From contig CAWAIF010000001.1 of the NCBI GenBank assembly GCA_963782055.1, positions 1 through 24,047 on the forward strand: a stretch of DNA of 24,047 nucleotides. Reading direction: 5' to 3'. This DNA comes from an uncultured delta proteobacterium. GTDB lineage: Bacteria > Myxococcota_A > Polyangia > Polyangiales > Polyangiaceae. The notes beneath the pieces are model-generated. The model searched no databases. It was not told the origin of the DNA and worked only from the letters and a program-made list of their open reading frames with translations. Of this stretch, positions 4,957 to 19,670 are shown piece by piece; position 1 is the stretch's first letter; each line of letters starts with the position of its first letter. The translations under genes and the position numbers were made by a program.

Positions 4957-5535
4957 TCAGCATGCCGGCGCGGGGCTTCCGGCCGGCCACGCTCCTCGCG
5001 CCGACCGCCGTCGCGCGCGGCGCGCTCGGTCCAGATCGCGCTGCCACCAGAAGCTGCCGACGCGGTCGAGGTCGGCCTCGTCGCCGAAGCCGTTGCGGAT
5101 GCGCAAGCAGAGCACCTCCAGGTGCCGGCGGGCTCGAGCGCACGCGCGCACGTCAGGCCAGCGACGCTCGCCGGGCGCGAGGGCGCCGTCCAGCGCCATG
5201 CCCACGTGGCCGACGAGGACCAGCCCGAAGAAGGCGCGCCGCACGCGACGCCGGCCTTCCGGCGTCAACTCCACGAGCACGTCGCGCCCGTCCCGCCGCC
5301 GCTCGACCAGCCCCAGCCGCTCGAGGGACCGCATCATGACGCTGATGGTGGACCGAGCCACGCCGAGAGCGCGCCGGAGGTGGCTCTGCAGGTGGACGCA
5401 GCGCGTCCCGAGCCGATACAGCGCGTCCAGAAGCTCGAACCGCGCTGCGGTGAGCCCCATCGCTGCCAGCGCCCGCCGCGTCAGCTTGAGTGTGGCGTAG
5501 TAAGCCCGCTTGATCGTGAAGAACACAGGGTGCAT
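4957..5535 (-). CDS. MarR-family winged-helix transcriptional regulator
   Basis: GLTAARFELLDAL, LRRALGVARSTISVMMRSLERLGLVERR, DGRDVLVELTPEGRR (wHTH and wing). Start ATG 5535 (or 5559); the C-terminal ~35 aa are of doubtful quality. Confidence 0.85.
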   Translation of the reverse strand: MHPVFFTIKRAYYATLKLTRRALAAMGLTAARFELLDALYRLGTRCVHLQSHLRRALGVARSTISVMMRSLERLGLVERRRDGRDVLVELTPEGRRRVRRAFFGLVLVGHVGMALDGALAPGERRWPDVRACARARRHLEVLCLRIRNGFGDEADLDRVGSFWWQRDLDRARRARRRSARGAWPAGSPAPAC

Positions 5536-5590
5536 GCGCCCTGCTGGAGCACACCCCATGCCACCCCTCCCCCCCGCGAGATTCGAGGGG

Positions 5591-5635: not shown

Positions 5636-5786
5636 GGGGACAGGAAAGGGGACAGGGGGGACAGGTCGCGCAGGCTGGCGAGGCGCGCTCGCTCGACAGG
5701 GCGCGTGGACGCGGGAAGGGCGTGCAGGCGCGTGGACGCGGGAAGGGCGCGCCCGCGCGGGACAGGCGGCGCAGGCGGGACAGGCG
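5636..5786. repeat. Patchwork of short G-rich direct repeats between gltG-like and marR
   Basis: GGGGACAGG x3 (5636, 5648, 5657); GGCGCGTGGACGCGGGAAGGGCG x2 (5700-5722, 5727-5749); GCGGGACAGGCG x2 (5757, 5775). Confidence 0.8.
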
Positions 5787-5803
5787 CGCGAGTCGCGGGA
5801 GCT

Positions 5804-7210
5804 TCAGCCGCCGATGCCGAACTTGAACGGGTAGGCGTTGACGTCGCTCGGCGACTCGGCGGTGGGGAAGTGCCACGACTTCACCTGCCGCAGGATGCAG
5901 CCTTCCACGCGGGGGTTGTGGATCGTCGAGCCGGCGACGGACGCCGTGTTGACCAATCCGCTCGGGGCGATCTTCCACGCCATGGTCACGCCGCCCCGCA
6001 GGCCTGGGTTGCGCGCGAGCTCGATGTCGTAGCAGGCGCGGAGCGCGCCCTGGTGCGCCATGACGACGCGGCGAATCTGCTCGGCGCTCAGGCCGCCGTG
6101 CGCGGTGGGGGTGCCGGCGCGCACGCCGACGCGCGCCTCGCCCGTGCCGTGGCCGGTGCCGGTGCCACCACCCGAGCCGCCCCGCCCGTTGCCGCCGTGA
6201 CCGCGTCCGCCCGGCCCGCCCCGGCCCCCGCCGTAGCCCCCGCCCTTGCCCGCGCCCCAGCCCGTGTCCATCGTGCCGGACCCGAAGATCACCCCCGCGC
6301 CGGTGCCGCCGCCGCCCGAACCCACGCCCTTGAGCGAGGTGCCCGGCCCCGAGCCGACGGTGAGCTGCTCCGAGTTCATCGCGAGGGCGTCGGAGACGCT
6401 GTTGATGGTGTTGAGCGTCTGCCGGATCTGCTCGCCCGTCTCCGACTGCAGGACCTCGCTGATGCCGCCGTAGTTGCGCGCCGGCTTGATGTCGCCGGGG
6501 ATCTCCGTCTTGTCCTTGTCGCCGTGGAGGCCGAGCTTGCCCTCGTCCCCCGCCACCTTGCGACCGCCGCCCTGCTTCTTCTTGTCCTTCGCGCCCGGGT
6601 CCTTCACACCCGAGCCGCCCGCCTTCGGGCCGGCCTGCACAGGCTCAGGCTCCTCGAGCACCGCCCGGCGCAGACCGAAGCGCGCCGCGTACTCGTCCGG
6701 ATCGGTGAGCTCGAGCGGCTTGTCGATGGGCGGGGGCGTCATGAGCGCGCGCATCAGGCCCAGCACGCCCACGTGGAGCACTCCGCTGGAGAAGAGGGCG
6801 AGCGCGACGAGCAGCTCCGGCCCCCACGCGTTCGCCATGGGCTGCGCTGCGGTGGCGTACTGGAAGAAGATGCCGAACTGGCCGTACTGCAGCAGCCCGA
6901 AGTCGCCCGGCACCACCGGGATCGGCGCCGCCGACCGCGCGAAGGAGGCCACGTCCTCGTCGCGGCCACGCAGCTTGAGCACCCCCGCCACCGCGCCGCG
7001 CGCGTCCACCTCCCACGCGCCATGCGCGCCGCGCACCGGCGCCGGCGACATGTCGATGCCATCGGGAATGGGGAGGACGGCCCCCGCGCCGTCACCGAGC
7101 TCGAAGGACTCGCCCGCACGCAGCGTACGCAGGGCGAGGACGGTGGTCCCCCAGACCGCGGCGACGCGCAGGACGTGCTGGTTGGGAGCGGTGGGCGCGG
7201 CAGCGGTCAT
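5804..7210 (-). CDS. GltG/NfsG-like protein (TM helix, Gly-rich linker, TonB-C-like AgmX/PglI C-terminal domain), no FHA domain
   Basis: ATG 7210 with GGAGG RBS; N-terminal LRVAAVWGTTVL; TM with SxxxH (LFSSGVLHVG); C-terminal LSAEQIRRVV...LRACYDIELARNPGLRGGV...VEGCILRQVKSWHFP...VNAYPFKF. Confidence 0.85.
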   Translation of the reverse strand: MTAAAPTAPNQHVLRVAAVWGTTVLALRTLRAGESFELGDGAGAVLPIPDGIDMSPAPVRGAHGAWEVDARGAVAGVLKLRGRDEDVASFARSAAPIPVVPGDFGLLQYGQFGIFFQYATAAQPMANAWGPELLVALALFSSGVLHVGVLGLMRALMTPPPIDKPLELTDPDEYAARFGLRRAVLEEPEPVQAGPKAGGSGVKDPGAKDKKKQGGGRKVAGDEGKLGLHGDKDKTEIPGDIKPARNYGGISEVLQSETGEQIRQTLNTINSVSDALAMNSEQLTVGSGPGTSLKGVGSGGGGTGAGVIFGSGTMDTGWGAGKGGGYGGGRGGPGGRGHGGNGRGGSGGGTGTGHGTGEARVGVRAGTPTAHGGLSAEQIRRVVMAHQGALRACYDIELARNPGLRGGVTMAWKIAPSGLVNTASVAGSTIHNPRVEGCILRQVKSWHFPTAESPSDVNAYPFKFGIGG

Positions 7211-7227
7211 CAAAACCTCCAGCGTCG

Positions 7228-7259
7228 AGGATAGCGCAACGAGGGAGGGACAGCGCAAC
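7228..7259 (-). promoter_or_regulatory. Candidate internal promoter of gltG-like with a tandem 12-bp direct repeat
   Basis: Minus strand GTTGCGCTGTCC-N7-GTTGCGCTATCC; the second copy overlaps a -10-like TATCCT. Confidence 0.45.
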
Positions 7260-7389
7260 CCGGGGCAGAGTTCCGGGCCGCCCGCGTCCATCGTTGGCAG
7301 GCGAACGATCGCCTCCGAGGGGGGGCGGGCGTGGAGGGAAAGGGGCGCGGGGGTGGGATGTGTCGCGACGCCGACCCCCGCCAGTCCCG

Positions 7390-7845
7390 CTAGAAAGCCG
7401 GCCCCTTGCGCGTCTCCTTCAGCTCCCCCATGAAGGACCGGTGCCCCAGGTCCCCCGCGGCGAACTCCGCGCGGACGCGGCGCAGGAAGTAGACGAGCTG
7501 CGGGCTGCGCAGGCGCCCCTCGATCTCCATCTCACCGAAGCGGAAGACCCGCGTGCCTCCGTCCAGCGTCTTGGACTCCAGCACGCCGGCATCCCCCTTG
7601 GCCTTGCCGACCGCCGCCGCCGCTATGTGAGGGCCCGCGTCCCTGTCCTTCTCCGCCGCCGCGCCCGCGTCCTTGTGGTGCGCGGGCGCCCTGGGGTGGT
7701 GGCGCGCCGGCGGGTGGTGCACCGGCTTCCGCTTCTTCGCCGGCCCCTTCGCGAAGGCGATGGCGCACGCGAACAGCACGGTGAGCACCACGAACGCGAC
7801 CACGCGACGCGGCCCCCGGACGACGCTCCTGCTTCGCCTGCTCAC
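7390..7845 (-). CDS. GltF/NfsF-like small secreted protein
   Basis: C-terminal 151 aa of the 7390..9219 ORF; GTG overlaps the upstream TGA (GTGA); signal peptide ending AIAFA; C-terminal FRFGEMEIEGRLRSPQLVYF...RSFMGEL resembles the GltF motif; position between gltE- and gltG-like genes. Confidence 0.75.
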   Translation of the reverse strand: MSRRSRSVVRGPRRVVAFVVLTVLFACAIAFAKGPAKKRKPVHHPPARHHPRAPAHHKDAGAAAEKDRDAGPHIAAAAVGKAKGDAGVLESKTLDGGTRVFRFGEMEIEGRLRSPQLVYFLRRVRAEFAAGDLGHRSFMGELKETRKGPAF

Positions 7846-8978
7846 TTGGCCCCCTTCGCGACCGACAGGTACTTCTCCACCTCCGCGCGCGCCGGGTGAT
7901 CCCCCGGGGCGTCGGAGAGGAAGCGCTTGAAGAGCGGCGTCGCCTGGTCCGGCTTCTTGAGGAAATCCTCGTAGAGCACGCCCAGGTTGAACAGCGCGGC
8001 GATGTTGTGCGGATCCTTCTTCAGCACCTTGGTGAGGATCCCGCGCGCCTCCTCCAGCTTCTGCGGCGTCTTCGCGTCCGCCTCGCCGCGCAGCGCCGCC
8101 GCCAGGCCGAGCTGCGCGTCGGTGTCGTCCGGCGAGACCTGCAGGATGGCGCGGTACTCCTCCTCCGCCTTGTTGTACACGCCGGCGCGCAGCAGCACGC
8201 CGCCCATGTTCAGGCGCGCGGTGGTGTCGCGCGGATCCTCCTGCGACGCCTTGGCGAAGGACTGGAAGGCCAGGGCGTCGTCGCCGGAGGCGAGCTGGAT
8301 GAGCCCCATCGCGCGGTAGGCGATGGCGCTGTGGGCGTTGGAGTCGAGCGCCTGCTTGGCGAGAAGCTGCGCCGTCTCGCGCTGGCCGCGGGCGAGGTGG
8401 CAGAGCGCCAGCTCGGCGAGCGCGTCGGCGTCGCCCGGCTTGCGCACGAGCACCTCCCGCGCCTGCGCGATGGCCTTCTCCAGCTGCCCGGAGTTGCGGA
8501 GCGCGGCCACCAGCAGCGTGCGAGCGTCCGTCGCGTTGGGGTGCGCCGACACGAAGTCTCCCAGCAGCCCCGCGGCCGCCTTGTACTCCCCGCGCCGGCG
8601 CTCCACCTCGGCGAGCGCGACGACCGCGTCCTGCGCGCCGGGCTGGATCTTCACCGCCGCGCGGAGCTGCTCCTCGGCGCCGGCGAGGTCCCCGACGCTG
8701 GCCAGCGTGACGCCCAGGTCGAAGCGAGCCTCCCACAGGTTCGGGTCGATGCTGATCGCCTCGCGGAACAGCGCCTCCGCGCGCTCCTTCTGTCCGTCCT
8801 TGGCGGCGCCCACGCCCTTGACCATCTTCCCGACGGCGACGGGGTTGGCCGGGGGGAGCGCCTTCGGCCCCGCCTGCACGCCGAGCGCCCCGTGCCCGCC
8901 GCCACAGCCGATCGCGCCGAGCGCCAGCGCCGCCGCCGCGACCGGGGCGAGGAAACGTGTAAGGTACACGCACCTCAT
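7842..8978 (-). CDS. TPR lipoprotein, GltE/AglT/NfsE-like
   Basis: Lipobox LGAIGC; consecutive TPR repeats (ARFDLGV, ARLNMGGV, ALFNLGVLY); ATGA overlap with the upstream gene; synteny. Confidence 0.82.
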   Translation of the reverse strand: MRCVYLTRFLAPVAAAALALGAIGCGGGHGALGVQAGPKALPPANPVAVGKMVKGVGAAKDGQKERAEALFREAISIDPNLWEARFDLGVTLASVGDLAGAEEQLRAAVKIQPGAQDAVVALAEVERRRGEYKAAAGLLGDFVSAHPNATDARTLLVAALRNSGQLEKAIAQAREVLVRKPGDADALAELALCHLARGQRETAQLLAKQALDSNAHSAIAYRAMGLIQLASGDDALAFQSFAKASQEDPRDTTARLNMGGVLLRAGVYNKAEEEYRAILQVSPDDTDAQLGLAAALRGEADAKTPQKLEEARGILTKVLKKDPHNIAALFNLGVLYEDFLKKPDQATPLFKRFLSDAPGDHPARAEVEKYLSVAKGAK

Positions 8979-11900
8979 TTCTTCCCCTTCTTCTTCTTCT
9001 TCTTGGCCTCACCCGGCGGGGGCTTGATGACCACCTTCGGCGCCTGGTCCTGCTCCTGCGCGGCCGCGCCACGCCGCGGCGCCTCGATGAGGCCGGGCAT
9101 CGGCAGCGGGCCCTCCGAGCGGATCTCGAAGCCGATCTCCTTGAAGGGCGGGTACAGCTCGGCGTTGAGCCGGCCGAGCGCCGCGCGCATCTTGGCCGTC
9201 CACTGGTTGAAGATGCCAAGCTCGAGGGCCTTCTTCCAGCCGTTCTCGTAGGCGTCCAGGCTCCGCTCCTCGATCGGCACGGCGAACGTCTCGATCTGCG
9301 ACTGGAAGTCTTCCTTCTCCTGCTCGGTCTTGGCGTCCGGCGGGACCGGCGACTCGCGCAGCGACTTGGCGAAGGTCTCGTAGGTGTAGCCGACCTGGTA
9401 AAGCGCGGCCGTCGTCCACTCGGCCACGCCGAAGGAGACGACGTCCAGAAACACCTTCGCCGCTTCCTTCAGCAGGTCCGCCTTCTGCTTCAGGCGCCGC
9501 CCGAGCTGCTTCACGTCCCCCTCGATCTTGATCTCCTCGAACCTGGCGAGCACGCGCTCGCCCTGCATGTAGCGCGCTTGCGCCGCGGCGTACTTGCCGT
9601 CCGGCCCGAGCGAGCGCTTGAGCTGCTTGCCGAGGCGCGTCGCGGACTGGAGCGACTGCGCCGCGCCGCGCTCGTCGCCGTTCTTCACCTGCGCCTTGGC
9701 GAGCAGCACGTAGCCCTGCACGCGGTGGTCCTGGTTCTTGCCGCCGCGCGTGAGGTAGCGCTTGTAGACCTCGATGGCGTCCTTGGTCTTGCCGGCGTCC
9801 TGGTTGGCGCGGCCCATCTGGAAGACGACCTCGTCCGCCTCCGGGGAGGTGCCGTACATGGCGAGGAAGTGGTTGCCGTCGGCGATGGCCTTGTCGTGCT
9901 CGCCGCCGGCGACGCGCAGGATGACCGCGTTGAAGGCGGCGTCCTTGGCGTGCTCGAAGTGGCGGTAGTTGGAGTGCTGCGGCGCGAGGGTGATGAACGC
10001 CTCGTCGTACTCCGCGGCGTCGGAGAAGAGCCCCATCGCCTGCAGCGTCGTCGCCGCGGTCCACGCGCCCTGGGGCGACTCCGGCCTGTCGCGGTAATCC
10101 TTCCCGGTGATGAGGGTGGCGGCCGCCTTCAGCGTCGTCACGTCCGCGGCCGCCTTGGCCTCCACCTCCGCGTTCACGCACGCCTGCGCCGCGCGCGAGT
10201 CCTTCGGGAACTCCCGCGCCGCCCGCAAGAACGCCGTCGCGGCGGCCGCGTGCTCCCCCGCGAGCGCCTTCTGCTCACCCTGCTTGAACACCGCCTGCAC
10301 GATGAGGTTGTCCAGCTTCGCCTGGAGCTTGGGCTCCTGGAAGCTCGGCGCCACCTTCAGCCGGCGCGCCCAGGTCTCGATGTTCTCGTAGTTCTTCGAC
10401 TTGTTGAAGCTGTCCAGGATGAGCTCGCCCGCGCCCTGCGCGTACTGGCTCTTGGGGAACTTCTCCAGCAGCGCGCCCCACAGCTTCACCGCCGGATCGT
10501 AGACGCCGTAGTCGTAGTAGAGCTTGCCCTGGCGGAAGAAGAGCTCGGGCAGCGCCGGGTCCGTCGGGTAGAGCTGCGCGTAGAGGTTGAGCGCCTCGGA
10601 GAACTTCTTGTCGGTCTCCGTCTCCTTCAGCGCGTCCGGCTTGCCCTTGCGCGCCTCCAGCTCGCTCTCCCGCACCACCTCCAGCGAGGCGATCGCGTTG
10701 TAGATGGCGTCGTGGCGCTTGAGCGGGTCGCCGGGGACGTCCTTGTCGATCTCCGGCATCGCGCGGGCGGCGTTCATGTAGTGCGTGGCCGCGTCGGTGG
10801 CCTTGTCCAGCCGGCGGAAGTCGATCTCGGCGAGGTAGAACTCGATCTCGTACGCCTTCGGCTCCTTGGAGAACTTGCCGAGGTACGCCTCGTAGAGCGT
10901 GGCGGCGGCCTCGAACTCGGCGCGGCTGGTGTTGTCGCGCTGCGCCTTGCCGTGCAGGTTGATGGCGTCCTGCCGGAGCTGCGCCTCGATCTTCTTCGTC
11001 GTGTCGGCGACGTTCTTCGCGTCCGCCTGCGTGCGCGACCACGGCCCGCCGGTGGTGTAGCCATCCAGCGCGCGCTTGTAGGTGGCCTCCAGGTGCGGGT
11101 AGTCCTCCAGCCAGCTCCAGCCCTGCGCGATGTCCAGCACCCACAGGCCCGCGTCGCGGCTCGTCGGCTCCAGCTTGAGCAGGAGCTCGTAGGCCTCGAT
11201 GCCGCGCTCGTAGTGGGCCTGGTCGTAGAACGTCTCGGCGAGCTTGCGGACGATCTTCCCGGCGAAGCGATCCCCACCGATCTTGGTGAGGAAGTTGTAC
11301 ATGTCCTGGGCGGTGTTCTTGTCGTCCTCGGTGAAGACCTCGACCAGGTACTTGAGGGCCTCGCCCTGCAGCTCGTCGAGCGCCTTCTGCTTCTCGACGT
11401 TGACCGCCTTGCCGGTGGTGTCGGTCACCTCGAAGACGCGGACGAAGCGCTTGGCGGCCTCGTCGCTGTTGCCCAGGCGCCAGTAGCACCACGCGCTCTT
11501 GAAGAGCGCCAGGCCGACGAGATCGCTCTTGGGGAACTTGAGGACCTCCTCGTACTCGTTGAGGGCGCCCTGGTAGTCCGGCTTGTTGAACATGGCCTCG
11601 GCGAGGGCCATGTGTGCGTCGGGGACGAAGCGCGAGCTCGGGTAGTCCTTCAGGATGCGGGTGAAGCGGGAGAGCGCCTCCTCCGTCTTGCCCGACTCGG
11701 TGGCGAGGAAGCCATCGACGTAGAGCGCCAGGTCGTACTGCGGGAACCAGGGGTAGTCGTTCAGCACCCGCGCGAAGAGGGCGCGCGAGGGGCCGTAGTT
11801 GAGCTGCGGCGCAGGGCCGCGCTGGTCCACCGGCTTCTTGTCCCAGATCTTGAAGTTCTCGACGAGGCTCTCGCGCTCGCCCTCCCAGAGGAGCTCGCCG

Positions 11901-12316
11901 AGACGCATGAGCGCCTCCGGCATGTCGGCCGAGTCGCGCGGGGCCTCCTTGATGAAGGTCTGCAGGAGCTTGATGGCCTCCACGCGGAGCTGCTTGATCT
12001 GCACCAGGTCGCGATCGATGCGCGCGTCGAGCTGCTTCTTCAGGGTGGCGCGCAGGGCCGGCGGGAGCTTCGGCCCGCGGACGGCCGGCGTCATGCCGTT
12101 CTCGCCCGTCTGCTTCTGCGCCTTCGGTCGCGGCTTCGCGCGCGGGCCGGCGGTGATCGACCGCTCGCTCACCGCCTTCACCTGCGAGGTCTCCGCCGCG
12201 GCCGCGGGGGTCGTGTCGCCGGGCTTGTCCTTGCCCTTCGACGGCGCGGCCTGCGCCACGCCGCCGGCGAGCACGACGGCCGCGGAGAGGGAGAGCAGCA
12301 GGCGCGCCGGCCTCAC
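8975..12316 (-). CDS. Large secreted TPR protein, GltD/AgmU/NfsD-like (~1113 aa)
   Basis: GTG 12316 overlapping the upstream stop; signal peptide ending VAQA; many TPRs; GltD-type C-terminus WTTAALYQVG...SPVPP...AVPIEERSLDAY...KALELGIFNQW...YPP. Confidence 0.85.
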   Translation of the reverse strand: MRPARLLLSLSAAVVLAGGVAQAAPSKGKDKPGDTTPAAAAETSQVKAVSERSITAGPRAKPRPKAQKQTGENGMTPAVRGPKLPPALRATLKKQLDARIDRDLVQIKQLRVEAIKLLQTFIKEAPRDSADMPEALMRLGELLWEGERESLVENFKIWDKKPVDQRGPAPQLNYGPSRALFARVLNDYPWFPQYDLALYVDGFLATESGKTEEALSRFTRILKDYPSSRFVPDAHMALAEAMFNKPDYQGALNEYEEVLKFPKSDLVGLALFKSAWCYWRLGNSDEAAKRFVRVFEVTDTTGKAVNVEKQKALDELQGEALKYLVEVFTEDDKNTAQDMYNFLTKIGGDRFAGKIVRKLAETFYDQAHYERGIEAYELLLKLEPTSRDAGLWVLDIAQGWSWLEDYPHLEATYKRALDGYTTGGPWSRTQADAKNVADTTKKIEAQLRQDAINLHGKAQRDNTSRAEFEAAATLYEAYLGKFSKEPKAYEIEFYLAEIDFRRLDKATDAATHYMNAARAMPEIDKDVPGDPLKRHDAIYNAIASLEVVRESELEARKGKPDALKETETDKKFSEALNLYAQLYPTDPALPELFFRQGKLYYDYGVYDPAVKLWGALLEKFPKSQYAQGAGELILDSFNKSKNYENIETWARRLKVAPSFQEPKLQAKLDNLIVQAVFKQGEQKALAGEHAAAATAFLRAAREFPKDSRAAQACVNAEVEAKAAADVTTLKAAATLITGKDYRDRPESPQGAWTAATTLQAMGLFSDAAEYDEAFITLAPQHSNYRHFEHAKDAAFNAVILRVAGGEHDKAIADGNHFLAMYGTSPEADEVVFQMGRANQDAGKTKDAIEVYKRYLTRGGKNQDHRVQGYVLLAKAQVKNGDERGAAQSLQSATRLGKQLKRSLGPDGKYAAAQARYMQGERVLARFEEIKIEGDVKQLGRRLKQKADLLKEAAKVFLDVVSFGVAEWTTAALYQVGYTYETFAKSLRESPVPPDAKTEQEKEDFQSQIETFAVPIEERSLDAYENGWKKALELGIFNQWTAKMRAALGRLNAELYPPFKEIGFEIRSEGPLPMPGLIEAPRRGAAAQEQDQAPKVVIKPPPGEAKKKKKKGKK

Positions 12317-14352
12317 TTCAGGCCCTCCCCGCCCACGAACTCGTCGGGCCAGTCGTCGCCCTCGAAGGGCCAGTACTCCTCGTTGTCCTGCAGGTAGCGG
12401 GCGGCGTCGAGCGAGTCGAGCGCGTCCTGCGGCAGGTAGCCGTTGTTGATCGCCTCGATCTCCACCTCGAGCGCGCGCTTGCGGCCGAGCACCGACTCGA
12501 TGCGGCCCATGTGCGCGCGGCGCAGCAGGCGCGAGAGGCGAAGGTCCAGCCGGCGCAGCGCGTCCTTCGCCAGGGTGATCTCCGCCTTGTCCAGCTCGCG
12601 CTCGGCGGCGGCGATGGGCTGCCCGAAGGCGACGGCGGCGGTCGAGTCGGAGCGGAGCAGGTCGGGCAGATCCTTCCCGCCGCCCGCCGCCTCGCCCGGA
12701 CCCTGCGCGCCCGCGCCGGCGGCGTCCTTCGCCTCGCGCACGCGGACGTCGAGCGCGTCCAGGTCCTTCTCCAGCGGGGCGATCCGCGCGGCGGGGGCGC
12801 CGCCGGAGCGCAGGTCGCCGATGAGGCGGCGCACGCCGTCGAGCGCGTTCTGCGCCTCCGCCAGCCGCGCGGCGGCGTCCGGCTTGTCCTCGATCGCGGG
12901 GCGCACGCCGCCCCCGACGGAGAGCTGGCGCTGCAGGTCTGCGAGCGAGCCCTCCGTCAGACGGAGGCCGCTCGCCTCGTGCTCGAGCACCGCGCGACGA
13001 CGGGCGATCGCGCCGTACGCCGGGTCCACGCGCAGCAGCGCGGCGATCGTGCGCATCGCCTCCGGGGAGCCGCCCTCCACGTCGGCGTTGCCCGCGTCGG
13101 AGCCCGCGCGCGCGGCGGTGACCACCGCCTGCATCGCGTGGTCGTCGCTCTGCAGGCGCCGTGCGGCGTCGCGCACCGGCTCGTAGAGCGCCACGAACTT
13201 GAGCAGCTTCTCGTCGGCGTCCTTGAACTTGCACTGCGCGAGATCGATGTACGCGTCCAGGATCCACGCCTCGTCCTCGTACGGGTGGTGGATCTGCAGG
13301 CCCTTGAGCTCGTCCAGAAGCTCGCGCGCGCCCTCGTAGTCCTTCTTCTCGTAGCGGCCGGTGGCCGCCTCGTAGAGCGCCTCGGCGAGGCGATCGGAGT
13401 CCTTGGGCACGAGGTAGTAGTAGTAGCGCGCGTCGTCAAAGCGGAACTGCTCGTGCGCCACGCGCCCCAGGGCGAGGCGCGCGAGATCGCGCACGGCGAA
13501 GAAGCGCTCGTCGGCGAAGACCGGCGTCGTCCGCGCCTCCCGCTTCGGGTCGGCGATCTTGCAGAAGAGGTCCTCCCCCTCCTTCATGTGGCCCTTCTCC
13601 ACCTGGATGAGGCCCTGCAGGTACGTCGCCTGCGCCCAGAAGCGCGAGCGCTGCGTCACCTTCGCGTACTCCGTCAGCGCGGCGTCGGGGTCGCCCTTGG
13701 CCTCGTCGGCGCGGCCGCGCAGGTAGGCCACCTCGCCCAGCGTCTCCTCCGGCGCGGTGCTCGGCACCGAGGCGAGGTCGGACACGGCGGCGTCGTACTT
13801 CTCGCTGGAGATGCCCATCTCCACCAGCCGGCGCACCGCGCGCCGCGCGTAGATGCCGCCGTTGTCCCACGCGCCGTGCGCGGTGAGCACGCGGCGCAGA
13901 TACGCGCGCGCCGGCTCGTTGACGCCGGCGGTGGCGTACGCGTTGCCGAGCAGGAACACCGCCGCGCGGCCCACGTCGTTCTCCGCGAAGGGGGCGAACT
14001 GCGGGCTCTCCACCATCTCGAGCAGGCGGGAGATGGCCTCGTCGACGCGACCGACGCGCAGCAGGTCCTCCGCCTCGGCGTCGCGGGCGCGCACGTCGTC
14101 CTGGGTCATCGCCGTCTGGCTGCCGAGCTTGCGCGCGGCGAGGGCGCCCTCCAGCGCCTGCATCGCCTCACCGTGGGACACCGGATCGGCCGCTGTCGCG
14201 GCGGGCGGCGGCGCCGCCGTCTCGGTGGGCGCCTCCGTCGCGCTCGCGCTCGCCGACGCCGCGGACCCGGCGCCTGCCGGCTGCTGGGCGACGGCCGCGC
14301 CGCCGAAGCCGGCCACGAGCACGAAGGCGATGGGGAAGATGCGGCGCCTCAA
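12313..14352 (-). CDS. Secreted TPR/coiled-coil protein, GltC/NfsC-like
   Basis: TTG start with GAGGT RBS; signal peptide ending AVAQ; TPRs (DLARLALGRVAHE, AEALYEAA); GltC-type C-terminal EYWPFEGDDWPDE. Confidence 0.82.
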   Translation of the reverse strand: MRRRIFPIAFVLVAGFGGAAVAQQPAGAGSAASASASATEAPTETAAPPPAATAADPVSHGEAMQALEGALAARKLGSQTAMTQDDVRARDAEAEDLLRVGRVDEAISRLLEMVESPQFAPFAENDVGRAAVFLLGNAYATAGVNEPARAYLRRVLTAHGAWDNGGIYARRAVRRLVEMGISSEKYDAAVSDLASVPSTAPEETLGEVAYLRGRADEAKGDPDAALTEYAKVTQRSRFWAQATYLQGLIQVEKGHMKEGEDLFCKIADPKREARTTPVFADERFFAVRDLARLALGRVAHEQFRFDDARYYYYLVPKDSDRLAEALYEAATGRYEKKDYEGARELLDELKGLQIHHPYEDEAWILDAYIDLAQCKFKDADEKLLKFVALYEPVRDAARRLQSDDHAMQAVVTAARAGSDAGNADVEGGSPEAMRTIAALLRVDPAYGAIARRRAVLEHEASGLRLTEGSLADLQRQLSVGGGVRPAIEDKPDAAARLAEAQNALDGVRRLIGDLRSGGAPAARIAPLEKDLDALDVRVREAKDAAGAGAQGPGEAAGGGKDLPDLLRSDSTAAVAFGQPIAAAERELDKAEITLAKDALRRLDLRLSRLLRRAHMGRIESVLGRKRALEVEIEAINNGYLPQDALDSLDAARYLQDNEEYWPFEGDDWPDEFVGGEGLK

Positions 14353-14362
14353 CGTGCAGACC

Positions 14363-15157
14363 TCATCGCTTCACTTTGTGAGCCTCGGCCTTCAGGCGGA
14401 CGCGAAGGTCGTAGCTGCCGCTCTTGTCGCTCGGAAAATCGCCGCCCATGTCGGAGTCGTCCCCCACGCGAAGCTCGACGGCCAGCGCCTGGTCCTGCGG
14501 CACCTCCACGATGAAGCGCGAGCGCTGCGTCGTCCGGAAGGCGTCGTTGCGGTCGTCGCGGCGCTCGATGTCCACCGTGATGGCGTGGCGGCCGGCGGAG
14601 AGGGCGTGCGCGTAGATCTGCGTCATGTCCTCGGCGTGGAAGGTCGGCGGCGCGGAGTAGACCGCGCCGTCGTCCAGCGAGACCACCAGGTGGGCGATGC
14701 GCGCGTGGTCGCCGTCGGTGCGCAGCGCGATGGTCAGCCGGGAGCGGAACAGCGTGTCGCCCACGGCGGCGGCGCGCGCGCGCAGCGCGGCGATGTCACC
14801 GATGAGCTTGTCGAAGTCCACCGCGCCCGCGTCGACGACGCCGGGCTGCGCGAACTCGCCCGGGGCGGGTGTGAGGGGGGAGGGCTTGACCCCGCCGTCC
14901 GCGCCGACGAGGCCGGGCGGCGGCGGCACCGGACCAGCGCCTCCGTCCGACGCGGCGGTGGGCGCCCCGGCGTCCCCCGCGGCGGCCCCCGCCTTGTCGT
15001 CGTACGGGTCGTCCCCGCCGCCCGCGTCCGCCGTCGCGGCGGGCTTCGGCCTGGGCTTCGGAGCCTTGCCGTGCCTGGGCGCGGCCAGCGCCAGCGTCAC
15101 GACCGTGACGCCGGCGAAGACCACGGTGGCGGCGGCGAGCCTTCCTCGAATGTGCAC
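14363..15157 (-). CDS. Uncharacterised secreted protein within the Glt-like cluster (low-complexity linker, short coiled coil, predicted beta-sandwich)
   Basis: GTG 15157 preceded by AAGGAG; signal peptide ending ALAA; Pro/Ala/Asp-Gly linker; amphipathic helix FDKLIGDIAALRARAAAVGDTLF; alternating beta-strand C-terminal domain. Confidence 0.75.
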   Translation of the reverse strand: MHIRGRLAAATVVFAGVTVVTLALAAPRHGKAPKPRPKPAATADAGGGDDPYDDKAGAAAGDAGAPTAASDGGAGPVPPPPGLVGADGGVKPSPLTPAPGEFAQPGVVDAGAVDFDKLIGDIAALRARAAAVGDTLFRSRLTIALRTDGDHARIAHLVVSLDDGAVYSAPPTFHAEDMTQIYAHALSAGRHAITVDIERRDDRNDAFRTTQRSRFIVEVPQDQALAVELRVGDDSDMGGDFPSDKSGSYDLRVRLKAEAHKVKR

Positions 15158-15257
15158 GTCGTGTCTCCTTGCTCGACCGGGGCCTCGGCGCGTCGTCACG
15201 GGCGGGTGCCCGACGGACTGTCATGGTGCCCGGAAAGCCCCGGCACGCCAAGGGTCT

Positions 15258-15947
15258 TCACCCCCCGAAGGGGATGAACATGCTGAAGCCGGCGGTGAAG
15301 AGCAGGTCGTTGACGATGTGCTCCTCACCGACGAGCTGCTGAGACAGAACGTGATCGCGCAGGTCCATGCGGATGGCGAACCACTTTCCGAAGAACCACT
15401 TGGTCCCGAGGCCCGCGCTGCCCGTCACGCCGACGGAGGTGGAGTCGTCGGTCACGCCCGCGCCGACGGCCAGGTTGAAGTCGAAGTGGGTGATGGCCCC
15501 ACCCATCCACCTCAGCTTGCCGTAGGCGAAGGACCAGACCAGGTGCCCGAAGTAGAGGAAGCCGTCCTTCTCGGTGGACTTCTCCAGCACGATCTGCGGA
15601 AAGCGGCGGTCGAAGGTCTCGGCGACGGCGCTGCGGAAGCGCGTGTACTGGAAGCTCGCCTCCAGGGCGAGGTCCTCCGAGAAGTGGAAGGTGTACGCGC
15701 CGCCCACCAGGTAGTTGGAGGAGTACAGGTCCGCGGCGTAGACCCCGCCCATCGCCGAGATCTCGTGGCGGAAGGCCTTGGTGAAGAGGCGCTCCTGGAC
15801 GCCGCGGTAGTGGCGGCCGCCCACCAGCTCCTGCTTGAGCTCCTCGTCCACGCACTGGGCGTGGGCCTTCGCCGGCCATAGCGCCACGACAGCGACCACG
15901 GCGGCGGCGCATCCCAACGCTTGCACGGTCCGCCTTTGGTCGCGCAT
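15258..15947 (-). CDS. Outer-membrane beta-barrel protein, GltA/GltB (NfsA/B)-like
   Basis: Signal peptide ending AKAHA; motifs VQERLFTKAFRHEI, YTFHFSEDLALE, WSFAYGKL, HFDFNLAVGAG; aromatic C-terminal strand FSMFIPF. Confidence 0.85.
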   Translation of the reverse strand: MRDQRRTVQALGCAAAVVAVVALWPAKAHAQCVDEELKQELVGGRHYRGVQERLFTKAFRHEISAMGGVYAADLYSSNYLVGGAYTFHFSEDLALEASFQYTRFRSAVAETFDRRFPQIVLEKSTEKDGFLYFGHLVWSFAYGKLRWMGGAITHFDFNLAVGAGVTDDSTSVGVTGSAGLGTKWFFGKWFAIRMDLRDHVLSQQLVGEEHIVNDLLFTAGFSMFIPFGG

Positions 15948-15958
15948 GTGCCCCCACG

Positions 15959-15988
15959 TGGGTAGCAGGGGCGCGTCTGCCGTGTCAA
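15959..15988 (-). promoter_or_regulatory. Candidate sigma70 promoter of the Glt-like operon
   Basis: Minus strand TTGACA (perfect -35), then 18 nt ending in TGc, then TACCCA (weak extended -10), 11 nt before the ATG. Confidence 0.45.
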
Positions 15989-16834: not shown

Positions 16835-19588
16835 TCACTTCACCAGCACCTCGAAGCTCGCCCCCTCGCCGTTCGTCGCCGGCACGTCGAGCACCACCGC
16901 GCTCGCCCCGGGCGCGACGTCCACGTTCGCCCCGTTCAGCGTCGCCGCGACGACCGTCCCGCCCGCCGGCGCGCGCACCTCCACCGTGCGCGGCACCTCG
17001 CGCGTCGGGCGGTACGTGCCCTGGATGGACGCGCCGTTCACCCGCAGGTCGAGCAGCTCCGTCTGCAGCGCGAAGTCGCGGCCGGGGACGTGCGGCTGGA
17101 TCACCAGGCCCGTCGCCGAGGCGTCGACGCCCGCGACGCGCAGGGTGGCCAGCAGCGGCATGGCGTCCTGGTTGCCGTTCATCACCGGGAAGTCGGTCAT
17201 CGGCGTGGCGGCGCTGTACCAGGCCTGGCCGGGGCGATCGCCGGCGGCCGACTCCAGGCCGTCCGGGCCGCTCCAGATGCCGTACCAGACGTCGGGGAAG
17301 GCGAGCGCGTGCGCCGTCATCGTGTTGCGCGCCAGGTGCGCGTAGGCGCGCCCCTCGTCGGAGAGCGCGTAGCCCCAGGTGAGCAGGCCGCTGATCGCCG
17401 GCCAGACCTGCCCGCCGGGGCTGAGCATCGCCCCGGTGGGCGACGGATCGTCCAGATCCTTCGCCACGCGGGCGACGAGCACGTCGCGGTCGGCCGGGTC
17501 GGGGAAGCTGCCGCCGATGAGCGCCCACACCTGCGACTCGAGCTCCGGCGCGTCGGCGTGCGCCAGCTTCCCGTCACCGAAGTAGGCGCGCCCGAAGAAG
17601 GAGCCGGTCCACGTCTGCGCCAGCGCTTGCTTGTAAGATGCAACCTTCTGCCGGATCTCCTGCGCCAGCGCGGCGTCGCGCGGCTCGATCAGGTCTGCCA
17701 CGCGTGGCAGGACGGCCACCGCCATCTGCGTGTTGGGGACGCTCTCCCCCTTGTCGATCGCCAGGCTCCTGTCCGGCGCCTCGAAGACGATGCCGTCGTT
17801 CCAGTCGCCGTCGCCGATGCGCACCAGGCCGTGCTCGCCGGTGCCCACCACGTCGAAGAGGTGGCGCACCGCGTCTCGCACGTGGTCGTAGACGATCGCC
17901 CCCTGCACCGCGTCCTTCGGGTAGTAGGGCGCGACCTCCTCCAGGAACGGCAGGTCGCCCGTCGCGCCGACGTACTCGCTCACCGCGAAGAGGAAGTAGA
18001 TGTCCAGATCGCTCGGGTGCGCGTGGAGGCCGAGCGCGTCGTCCAGCACGCCGTGGCCCTGGAAGGCGTAGGAGAAGCGCTTGTCCGACGCGTACTGCAT
18101 GCCCGTCATCAGGGCGATCTCGTCGCGCGCGAGGGCGGGGTCGGTGTAGACGAGGGGCACCGCGAAGAGGGCGAGATCGCGCAGCGCGCCGTCCGCGCCG
18201 TGCAGGTAAAGGTACGCCGACCCCTGCGGCACCACGTGGTGCCCCCAGTAGTCGCGGTAGCCGACGGAGGCCTCGAGCTGCGAGGCGTGCCACGCCATCT
18301 CCCGCTGCAGCGCGCCGGAGCCGCGCTCGCGCGGGCCGTCCTCGGCGTTGGCGAAGTACAGCAGGTGGGTGGCGAGCTCCTCGCGCAGGGTCTTGCGCAT
18401 GTCGCAGTCCGGGTCGTGCCACTCGTGCTGGATGGGCAGCGAGTCGCCGTGGGCCACGTAGCCGTAGGCGTAGCGGAGCGACTGCGAGGCGTGCGGCGGC
18501 AAGGCGAGGTCGGCGCGCAGGACCAGCGCCCTGCCCTGCCCCGCGCCGGGGGTGGGGGCCGCGATGGTGTCGGTGTCCTGCCCGGGCGCGCCGGCGCGCA
18601 CGGCGTCGGGCGAGGCCACCCCGCCCGCGCCGAAGAAGGACCGCTGGTCGGTGTAGAAGGCGTCGGTCGGGCCGATGAGCGTCGCGAGGAACGGCTCGCC
18701 CGGGTAGTCGTCGGTCGCGCTCGCGGCCTCCGGCGGGGGCGCGGTCACGCCGGCGTGCAGGGTGCGGTGGATCTGGAGCACGCCCTGCGACGGATCCCAC
18801 GACGCCGACTCGTCGAACATGGCGTCCTCGGCGTCACGGGAGGCGTCCACCGCCCCCGGCACCGAGCTCAGCGGGTTGCCCGACACGATCCAGTTGGTGG
18901 TGAGCGGCCGCCGCCCGACGTCCCAGTACTCGTAGTGCTTGACGTGCGCGAGCACGCTCCCGAGGTTCGCCACCGTCACCTCGTCGACGAGCGAGGTCAC
19001 GTCGCCCGCCGGCGCGTAGATGACGTGCGTGACGCGGATGTCGTCGTAGGTGCTGCTCGTCTCGTAGTAGCCCATGCCGTAGCGGCGGGTGACCACCGCG
19101 CCGGGCGGGCGCCACTCGTAGGCGGTGTTCCAGGTGGTGCGGCCGTCGTCGACGTAGGAGAAACCGCCGGCGAAGTTCTGCTGCGCGGCGTCGAACTTGT
19201 TCAGGTACTCCGGCCCGCGGTCCTGGTCCGTCAGCTCCACGTAGCCGTCGTTGTAGGCGAGCGCGGTGACGCGATCGTTGCCGAAGGAGAACCAGTGATC
19301 GCGGCGGTCCTCGCCGCGGGTGTTGTAGAAGGAGGCGCGCGCGTCGGCGTTCTCGTCCAGGCCGTAGTCGTAGGCCGGGTAGCCGAAGGCATCGACCGTC
19401 CAGCGGCCGAAGATGCCGCTGCCGGTGGAGCACCCGGCGAAGGTGCGCGGCGCGTCTGCGCTCGCGGGCGCGCACGTCTCCGGCGGCGGATCGTAGGGAG
19501 GATCGCGCGCGAGGATCTCGGTGCCGCCCTCCGAGCACGCCACCGCGATCACGCCGAGGCCGACCAGAGCGGCGAGCGCGCGCGTCAT
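16835..19588 (-). CDS. GH94-like (alpha/alpha)6 glycoside phosphorylase/hydrolase family protein with lipoprotein signal
   Basis: Motifs ALRDLA, HPSDLDIY, EYVGATGDLPFLEE, GEHGLVRIGDGDWNDG, GES, WTGSFFGRAY, ESQVWALI; lipobox IAVAC after the ATG at 19588. Confidence 0.75.
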   Translation of the reverse strand: MTRALAALVGLGVIAVACSEGGTEILARDPPYDPPPETCAPASADAPRTFAGCSTGSGIFGRWTVDAFGYPAYDYGLDENADARASFYNTRGEDRRDHWFSFGNDRVTALAYNDGYVELTDQDRGPEYLNKFDAAQQNFAGGFSYVDDGRTTWNTAYEWRPPGAVVTRRYGMGYYETSSTYDDIRVTHVIYAPAGDVTSLVDEVTVANLGSVLAHVKHYEYWDVGRRPLTTNWIVSGNPLSSVPGAVDASRDAEDAMFDESASWDPSQGVLQIHRTLHAGVTAPPPEAASATDDYPGEPFLATLIGPTDAFYTDQRSFFGAGGVASPDAVRAGAPGQDTDTIAAPTPGAGQGRALVLRADLALPPHASQSLRYAYGYVAHGDSLPIQHEWHDPDCDMRKTLREELATHLLYFANAEDGPRERGSGALQREMAWHASQLEASVGYRDYWGHHVVPQGSAYLYLHGADGALRDLALFAVPLVYTDPALARDEIALMTGMQYASDKRFSYAFQGHGVLDDALGLHAHPSDLDIYFLFAVSEYVGATGDLPFLEEVAPYYPKDAVQGAIVYDHVRDAVRHLFDVVGTGEHGLVRIGDGDWNDGIVFEAPDRSLAIDKGESVPNTQMAVAVLPRVADLIEPRDAALAQEIRQKVASYKQALAQTWTGSFFGRAYFGDGKLAHADAPELESQVWALIGGSFPDPADRDVLVARVAKDLDDPSPTGAMLSPGGQVWPAISGLLTWGYALSDEGRAYAHLARNTMTAHALAFPDVWYGIWSGPDGLESAAGDRPGQAWYSAATPMTDFPVMNGNQDAMPLLATLRVAGVDASATGLVIQPHVPGRDFALQTELLDLRVNGASIQGTYRPTREVPRTVEVRAPAGGTVVAATLNGANVDVAPGASAVVLDVPATNGEGASFEVLVK

Positions 19589-19594
19589 GACGCA

Positions 19595-19623
19595 AGCGTT
19601 GCCGCCGGAGAGCGGGCCGTCAA
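19595..19623 (-). promoter_or_regulatory. Candidate sigma70 promoter of the GH94-like gene (leaderless geometry)
   Basis: Minus strand TTGACG-17 nt-AACGCT-6 nt-ATG. Confidence 0.45.
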
Positions 19624-19670
19624 GCACCCGCGGCGTTGCGTGGCTCGCGCTGTCGTGCTCCGATGCGACG

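Follow-up and report, generated by a model that had tools for sequence, protein, structure and literature searches.

The window analysed here comprises 24,047 nucleotides (nt) from a Polyangiaceae genome (contig CAWAIF010000001.1 of assembly GCA_963782055.1; the source genome, G000, has 7.58 Mb, is 97% complete and has contigs labelled C2 and C3). At positions 5804-15947, on the minus strand, it carries seven co-oriented genes, namely a barrel gene (A), a gene for a secreted protein (B) and then GltC/D/E/F/G-like genes. The core content of the Glt systems of Myxococcus xanthus is present in the form of clustered homologues of GltC, GltD, GltE and GltG, a GltA/B barrel, and F, which is assigned by a weak profile and by position. 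This operon belongs to a class-wide paralogue clade of its own, separate from the gliding set and from the G4-type clusters. Its features, and two unlinked genes of the source genome discussed with it, are the following (aa, amino acids; TPR, tetratricopeptide repeat).

15959-15988, minus strand: likely sigma70-type promoter, TTGACA (15988-15983) followed after 18 nt by TACCCA, 12 nt before the start of A
15258-15947, minus strand: A, GltA/B-family outer-membrane beta-barrel, 229 aa; TIGR04565 at 109 bits (cut-off 60)
14363-15157, minus strand: B, secreted protein and predicted GltC partner, 264 aa, GTG start; assigned from a model, a complex model and natural fusions
12313-14352, minus strand: C, GltC-like TPR scaffold, 679 aa, TTG start; GltC model at 70 bits (cut-off 450)
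8975-12316, minus strand: D, GltD-like large periplasmic TPR protein, 1113 aa; assigned from TPR families, D homology and trees
7842-8978, minus strand: E, GltE-like TPR lipoprotein, 378 aa; GltE model at 105 bits (cut-off 225), lipobox-like IGC
7390-7845, minus strand: F, GltF-like small secreted protein, 151 aa; conserved C-terminal ~60 aa
5804-7210, minus strand: G, GltG-like transducer, 468 aa; myxo_SS_tail at 92.5 bits, GltG at 80 bits (cut-off 650)
G000 C2:471891-473015: L, lipoprotein without a family, unlinked to the window operon
G000 C3:62958-63947: H, GltH-like barrel, unlinked to the window operon

Both the common orientation of the seven genes and the 4-nt stop/start overlaps linking C to F (GTGA at C/D, ATGA at D/E, GTGA at E/F), as reported in the initial annotation, are read directly from the sequence, and intergenic gaps of 100 nt, 10 nt and 179 nt separate A from B, B from C and F from G, respectively. 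An ATG overlapping the stop codon of B opens a reading frame of five codons (14352-14366, minus strand) whose own stop overlaps the TTG start of C, and which could couple the translation of B and C. When synteny was followed in relatives, a check which that annotation had proposed, 19 of 64 related loci, nearly all of them from Polyangiaceae-like records, had all seven genes arranged as in the window; the named cultured strain Labilithrix luteola DSM 27648 (L007) carries this order. Most of the other loci meet a contig edge, or their far genes lie beyond the 10 kb flank, and at one locus (L065) A is inverted.

Of 31 Polyangiaceae-like loci, 26 have the hexamer TTGACA at most 330 nt ahead of the barrel domain, as against 0.5 on shuffled sequences, which suggests, at the level of sequence motifs, that A is preceded by a housekeeping-type promoter. 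No enrichment of a sigma54 motif was found upstream of A. Orthologous loci outside the family number 30, with 16 from other families of the class and 14 from the same order, and 14 of the 16 from other families have an FHA-sigma54 activator gene divergent from the operon.

The Glt homology claimed at the outset was recovered by profile searches for A, C, E and G. D is homologous to the D proteins of both other Glt-like clusters in the genome, and no plasmid match was found for it. A scan of the Pfam/NCBIfam library gave no direct family match for F; its profile weakly matches (24-31 bits) the F-position gene of other Glt-like clusters, one of which matches gliding_CglF (we take CglF to be GltF, and CglE to be GltH). 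A PDB sequence search with A returned nothing useful.

Counting of Glt-like clusters and motor sets, also proposed initially, gave three Glt-like sets (the window operon, a gliding-type set and a G4-type set) and two AglRQS-like triads in the source genome. The gliding-type set, at C3:5.73-5.76 Mb, has a GltC of 299 bits and a GltG of 176 bits, the best in the genome, compared with 70 and 80 bits for the window proteins, and includes a CglF-like gene, a TPR reading frame of 3854 aa and two barrels; no giant TPR gene was found after G in the window. In the G4-type set, at C3:3.84-3.86 Mb, a barrel and an OPX exporter come after C-D-E-x-G. Two unannotated genes precede the barrel and OPX genes of this set (L001:3814-9018; C3:3.842-3.847 Mb) and encode a 231-aa membrane protein between E and G and a 227-aa secreted helical protein after G.

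In trees of C, D and E together, the window operon groups with other Polyangia clusters (support 100), and the clade so formed is sister (99) to the G4-type clusters, with the gliding type lying apart. The trees were built with FastTree on 50 rows (L060 left out) and with IQ-TREE (LG+G4, quick) on 30 of those rows, with midpoint rooting, and L001 and L003 form long branches in them. This clade and the separate gliding-type set bear out the proposal of a Glt-like system distinct from the gliding one. Of the tree comparison that had been suggested, the separate clade stands, on rows that hold no M. xanthus sequences, and the Nfs, G4 and G5 sets of M. xanthus were compared by order and size as given in Table S3 of PMC3169522. 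In the searchable phylum set, none of the 123 genomes passed the GltC cut-off.

The M. xanthus G4 cluster (MXAN_1923-1919 in Table S3 of PMC3169522) shares with the window the order C-D-E-F-G, a long GltC and a short GltG (447 aa as against 468 aa), and G4-type clusters, besides forming the sister clade, have a B homologue upstream of C in 6 of 6 loci. However, clusters of the window type are not linked to an OPX exporter and include GltA/B barrel(s) along with L and a GltH-like barrel; moreover, the source genome has its own G4-type set elsewhere and the window falls outside the G4-type clade. The set Hoch_3957-3964 of Haliangium ochraceum, which has neither a name nor a comment in that table, shows two barrels, an unlisted gene at the B position and C-G, with sizes of 689 (C), 1058 (D), 395 (E), 185 (F) and 474 aa (G). 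Two-barrel loci of the window type resemble it in order and sizes, as seen in L123 (D 1075, E 397, F 168 and G 472 aa, stop to stop), whereas the window itself has lost one barrel, and B, L and the GltH-like barrel are not listed in the table for the Haliangium set. Haliangium sp. is the named source of one B orthologue (P0388). Going solely by gene order and sizes, Hoch_3957-3964 is probably of the same type as the window operon, and given this agreement the type was likely catalogued in the 2011 Luciano supplement and, as far as its Table S3 goes, never named.

NfsA-H (G3) of M. xanthus, which works with AglRQS, has the same one-locus A/B-C-D-E-F-G(-H) layout, the same lack of GltI/J/K and an unlinked common motor. 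Nfs is, however, the closest Glt paralogue, with an NfsG of 682 aa (FHA/TonB), an NfsC of 512 aa and no B-position gene in Table S3 of PMC3169522, whereas the window clade is far from the gliding-type rows in trees that hold no Nfs sequence. The G5 cluster of the same table (order F-G-barrel-C-D, with an FHA-containing G of 749 aa) is unlike the window order barrel-B-C-D-E-F-G with its G of 468 aa. With Agl-Glt, the window system shares homologues of GltA/B, C, D, E, F, G and an unlinked H, as well as the membrane-proximal FHA-type domain; it differs in being without the first FHA domain and without linked GltI/J/K, in having B and L in addition, and in scoring far below the equivalog cut-offs, and a set closer to Agl-Glt lies elsewhere in the source genome. 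The system is already known in kind, and it is the fuller parts list, with B, L and the unlinked H, that is new. A review of 2015 reportedly classifies Agl-Glt systems and may cover the clade. Our literature search found no paper naming the clade, B or L, with subscription papers and the synteny figure of 10.1101/2020.07.22.216333 as sources that may cover it. Another Glt-like clade (L086, L089, L091, L093, L095, L097 and L108) has the order barrel(s)-C-D-E-F and, in the two loci tested (L086 and L095), a zinc-finger GltJ-like protein at the G position instead of GltG.

The single barrel of the operon had been regarded as one of its defining traits, but two barrels are present in all 16 orthologous loci from other families of the class, and one barrel in 13 of the 14 same-order loci, the remaining one being cut by a contig end. 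Since only three TIGR04565 barrels were found in the source genome, the second barrel appears to be truly lost, and the single barrel of the window operon looks, from these comparisons, like a lineage loss. A clusters apart from the upstream barrel of two-barrel relatives, with weak support, and therefore the B-proximal barrel is probably the one retained as A.

In 17 of the 30 orthologous loci outside the family the lipoprotein gene L follows G, and in 15 of the 30 the gene for the small barrel H does so. All 5 of the 5 H proteins tested match gliding_CglE, with scores of 32-58 bits (cut-off 70). Thus GltH, first thought to be missing, has a counterpart in the barrel at C3:62958-63947, which is operonic in other families and co-occurs with the system. 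L belongs to no Pfam/NCBIfam family, and in the ESM Atlas only unnamed clusters were found for it. In a sample of 201 genomes, B was detected in 84 (window-type threshold of at least 87 bits, the next score being 57), with counts of 86 for L and 88 for H; all three occur together in 82 genomes, and 113 have none of them. Four genomes have L and H without B; two of these (G397 and G405) have D fragmented on short contigs and the other two (G452 and G457) have a B-C fusion. Presence of the system is patchy, with 48 of 107 genomes within one family, and patchy also within genera. Our confidence in the architecture of the system is high. In the source genome, L follows a TPR/sigma54 activator gene (L129:7892-11654; G000 C2:471891-475653), and in two loci (L060:3007-6267 and L025:3082-6342) the pair of activator and L stands directly upstream of barrel A.

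B is modelled as a signal peptide, a disordered Pro/Ala linker, an SPLxPxxxEF motif, a helix (115-133) and a beta-sandwich (139-261). No Pfam/NCBIfam family was found for it with either the single sequence or a 25-row alignment, the ESM Atlas gave only unnamed clusters and Foldseek gave no match at E<=0.001. A resemblance to the transthyretin-like PepT2 domain (VIA best Z 8.3, root-mean-square deviation (rmsd) 3.5 over 100 residues) was set aside as a common sandwich, and no function was drawn from it. The profile search with B gave 1792 matches, the best 150 of the 1792 being listed, and B may resemble a gene of core clusters in gammaproteobacteria. B had been presented as an extra subunit unique to this cluster; however, the gene that precedes gltC in G4-type loci is picked up by the B profile too, in 6 of 6 loci (hhalign 95%), with no match in the 23 other loci of L081-L108 or in the gliding set. 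Two to five tandem B-type sandwich domains are seen in P0128, P0141, P0158, P0172 and P0206.

C has a coiled insert of ~110 aa (about residues 476-583), and such an insert is present in 25 of 25 B-bearing clusters as against 0 of 23 B-less ones, a count that leaves out L076 (split C), L104 (poor C) and L030 (unpicked C). In two genomes, G452 and G457, no separate B gene is left; the motif and helix of B are fused to C, with both the sandwich and the C insert absent. In P0140, B-type domains are fused to a GltC that matches a G4-type C at 29% over 434 aa. A model of the C+B complex scored 0.81, compared with 0.00 for the best of three controls (the mark used for such models was reached by 116 of 157 solved pairs and 2 of 215 mismatched pairs); contacts agreed to at least 82% between runs and partner pLDDT was at least 72. 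In this model the B helix, the piece kept in the G452/G457 fusion, packs on C at ~455-477, 566-608 and the N-terminus, and no contact is seen between the B sandwich and the tip of the C insert. On account of the complex model, the natural fusions and an insert that tracks B, B is predicted to be a GltC-binding subunit whose helix would complete the GltC helical bundle. At L076:11539-13528 a gltC-like gene is split over two frames.

G had initially been called FHA-less. Its architecture, however, comprises a cytoplasmic FHA-type domain directly before one transmembrane (TM) helix, a Gly-rich linker and a TonB-C-like tail. The first 120 residues are modelled at a pLDDT of 94, and this N-terminal model is closest in fold to FHA domains, with a Foldseek E of 2.5e-3 and, separately, a Z of 7.2 (rmsd 3.7 over 107 residues). 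Since M. xanthus GltG has two FHA domains, of which the first is modelled on GltI and the second, with the TM helix, on AglR (PMC11761067), only the scaffold-binding first domain would have been lost from G, and the motor-facing, membrane-proximal FHA-type domain would be retained.

No motor genes are linked to the operon, as had been stated. The source genome has five MotA/TolQ/ExbB genes, two of them within divergent AglRQS-like triads at C3:1.066-1.071 Mb; an unlinked motor is ordinary, as M. xanthus G1, G3, G4 and G5 are also unlinked (PMC3169522). Among the family genomes with the system, 15 of 49 have just two AglR-like matches, which rules out a third dedicated motor as a requirement. 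Because of these genomes, and because Glt and Nfs use one common motor (PMC3858216), sharing of a motor by the window system is plausible by analogy.

We propose, with a probability of roughly 45%, that the operon is the envelope-spanning core of a third, Polyangia-wide Glt paralogue, which likely borrows an unlinked AglRQS proton motor to move an outer-membrane platform and its surface cargo. Following the Agl-Glt model, the FHA-type domain and TM helix of G would dock on AglR of the unlinked motor, the contact of the second FHA domain and TM helix with AglR being itself a model (PMC11761067). The periplasmic arm of G would wrap D, F would bridge G to C, and C, completed by the B helix, would grip the barrels A and H. 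Force may then pass from G through D, F and C to an outer-membrane platform of A, H and L and to its surface cargo, with L, at the GltK/CglB position, as a putative surface cap or adhesin. Because the locus has no first FHA domain and no GltI/J, the machine would not be wired to the polarity scaffold and would be an Nfs-like surface transporter of growing cells rather than a gliding engine. A more tentative extension envisages a motor-sharing, Polyangia-specific surface machine of nine to ten subunits, with L as cargo or adhesin, which would add a third Agl-driven task to gliding and spore-coat assembly, B being the GltC-completing subunit that defines a second Glt branch, including G4 beside the biosurfactant exporter.

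Several observations weigh against this proposal. The FHA call for G leans on middling scores, and the GltE model scores the window E higher than the gliding-type E (105 vs 68 bits). The match between B and the insert across clusters amounts to one gain and one observed co-loss, and the related genomes in the 201-genome sample are not independent. The flanks examined contain no conserved genes for polysaccharides or any other cargo next to the cluster. At least three AglR-like matches are present in 34 of 49 family genomes with the system vs 25 of 59 without it, and on these somewhat higher counts a dedicated motor in some lineages is conceivable.

The cargo may instead be a sugar polymer exported from elsewhere, which a polysaccharide-handling machine like the G4-type sister would pull or spread, with L as a sugar-binding helper. 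We consider this unlikely, although the sister G4-type set lies beside a barrel and an OPX gene in the source genome, a few locus tags separate M. xanthus G4 (MXAN_1923-1919) from the BPS exporter MXAN_1916/1915 (Table S3 of PMC3169522, PMC7310880, PMC9601211) and sugar polymers are carried by both Glt and Nfs (PMC3858216), since the flanks examined show no recurring exporter or glycosyltransferase gene next to the cluster and the source genome already has a G4-type set. The TonB-C-like tail of G would also suit a TonB-like energiser that stays in place and, with no lateral movement, secretes, flips or imports a substrate through the barrels; no GltI/J or first FHA domain is there to give direction, and a secretion role has been proposed for the ancestral core (10.1101/2020.07.22.216333). 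Against this, the barrels measure only about 200 aa, no plugged receptor accompanies the cluster and Nfs moves without GltI/J/K (PMC3858216), which makes such an energiser less likely still. A second gliding gearbox for particular surfaces or prey is improbable: the ancestral content (two barrels, C-G, a GltH-like barrel and a lipoprotein) mirrors the gliding outer-membrane platform and the housekeeping-type promoter is conserved, but a gliding-type set exists in the same genome, the first FHA domain modelled to dock on GltI (PMC11761067) is absent, and the system was not found in 113 of 201 genomes, nearly all of which keep AglR.

The roles of the Glt paralogues other than gliding and Nfs have been open since 2011, and the parts list of one of them is now defined, adding B, L and an unlinked GltH-like barrel to a conserved paralogue carried by Labilithrix luteola DSM 27648. 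The predicted GltC partner B is expected upstream of gltC in G4-type clusters too, where it is testable in a tractable myxobacterium, and the natural B-C fusion offers a ready comparison for the B-C pairing.

As for the neighbourhood, genes inserted within the operon in relatives were considered as a hint of cargo and proved unrelated between lineages, and the ThiD, TsaC, PilD, S9 peptidase and FtsEX neighbours look like ordinary synteny. Upstream of the operon, a 930-aa lipoprotein-like GH94-family glycoside phosphorylase/hydrolase (16835-19627, minus strand) adjoins an SDR gene; the GH94 and SDR pair flanks the operon in L032 and the SDR alone in L030. Downstream of G, a MarR-family regulator is encoded at 4957-5559 (minus strand), with look-alikes at C3:55626 and C3:7001173, and short GC-rich repeats lie between this gene and G, at about 5650-5800.

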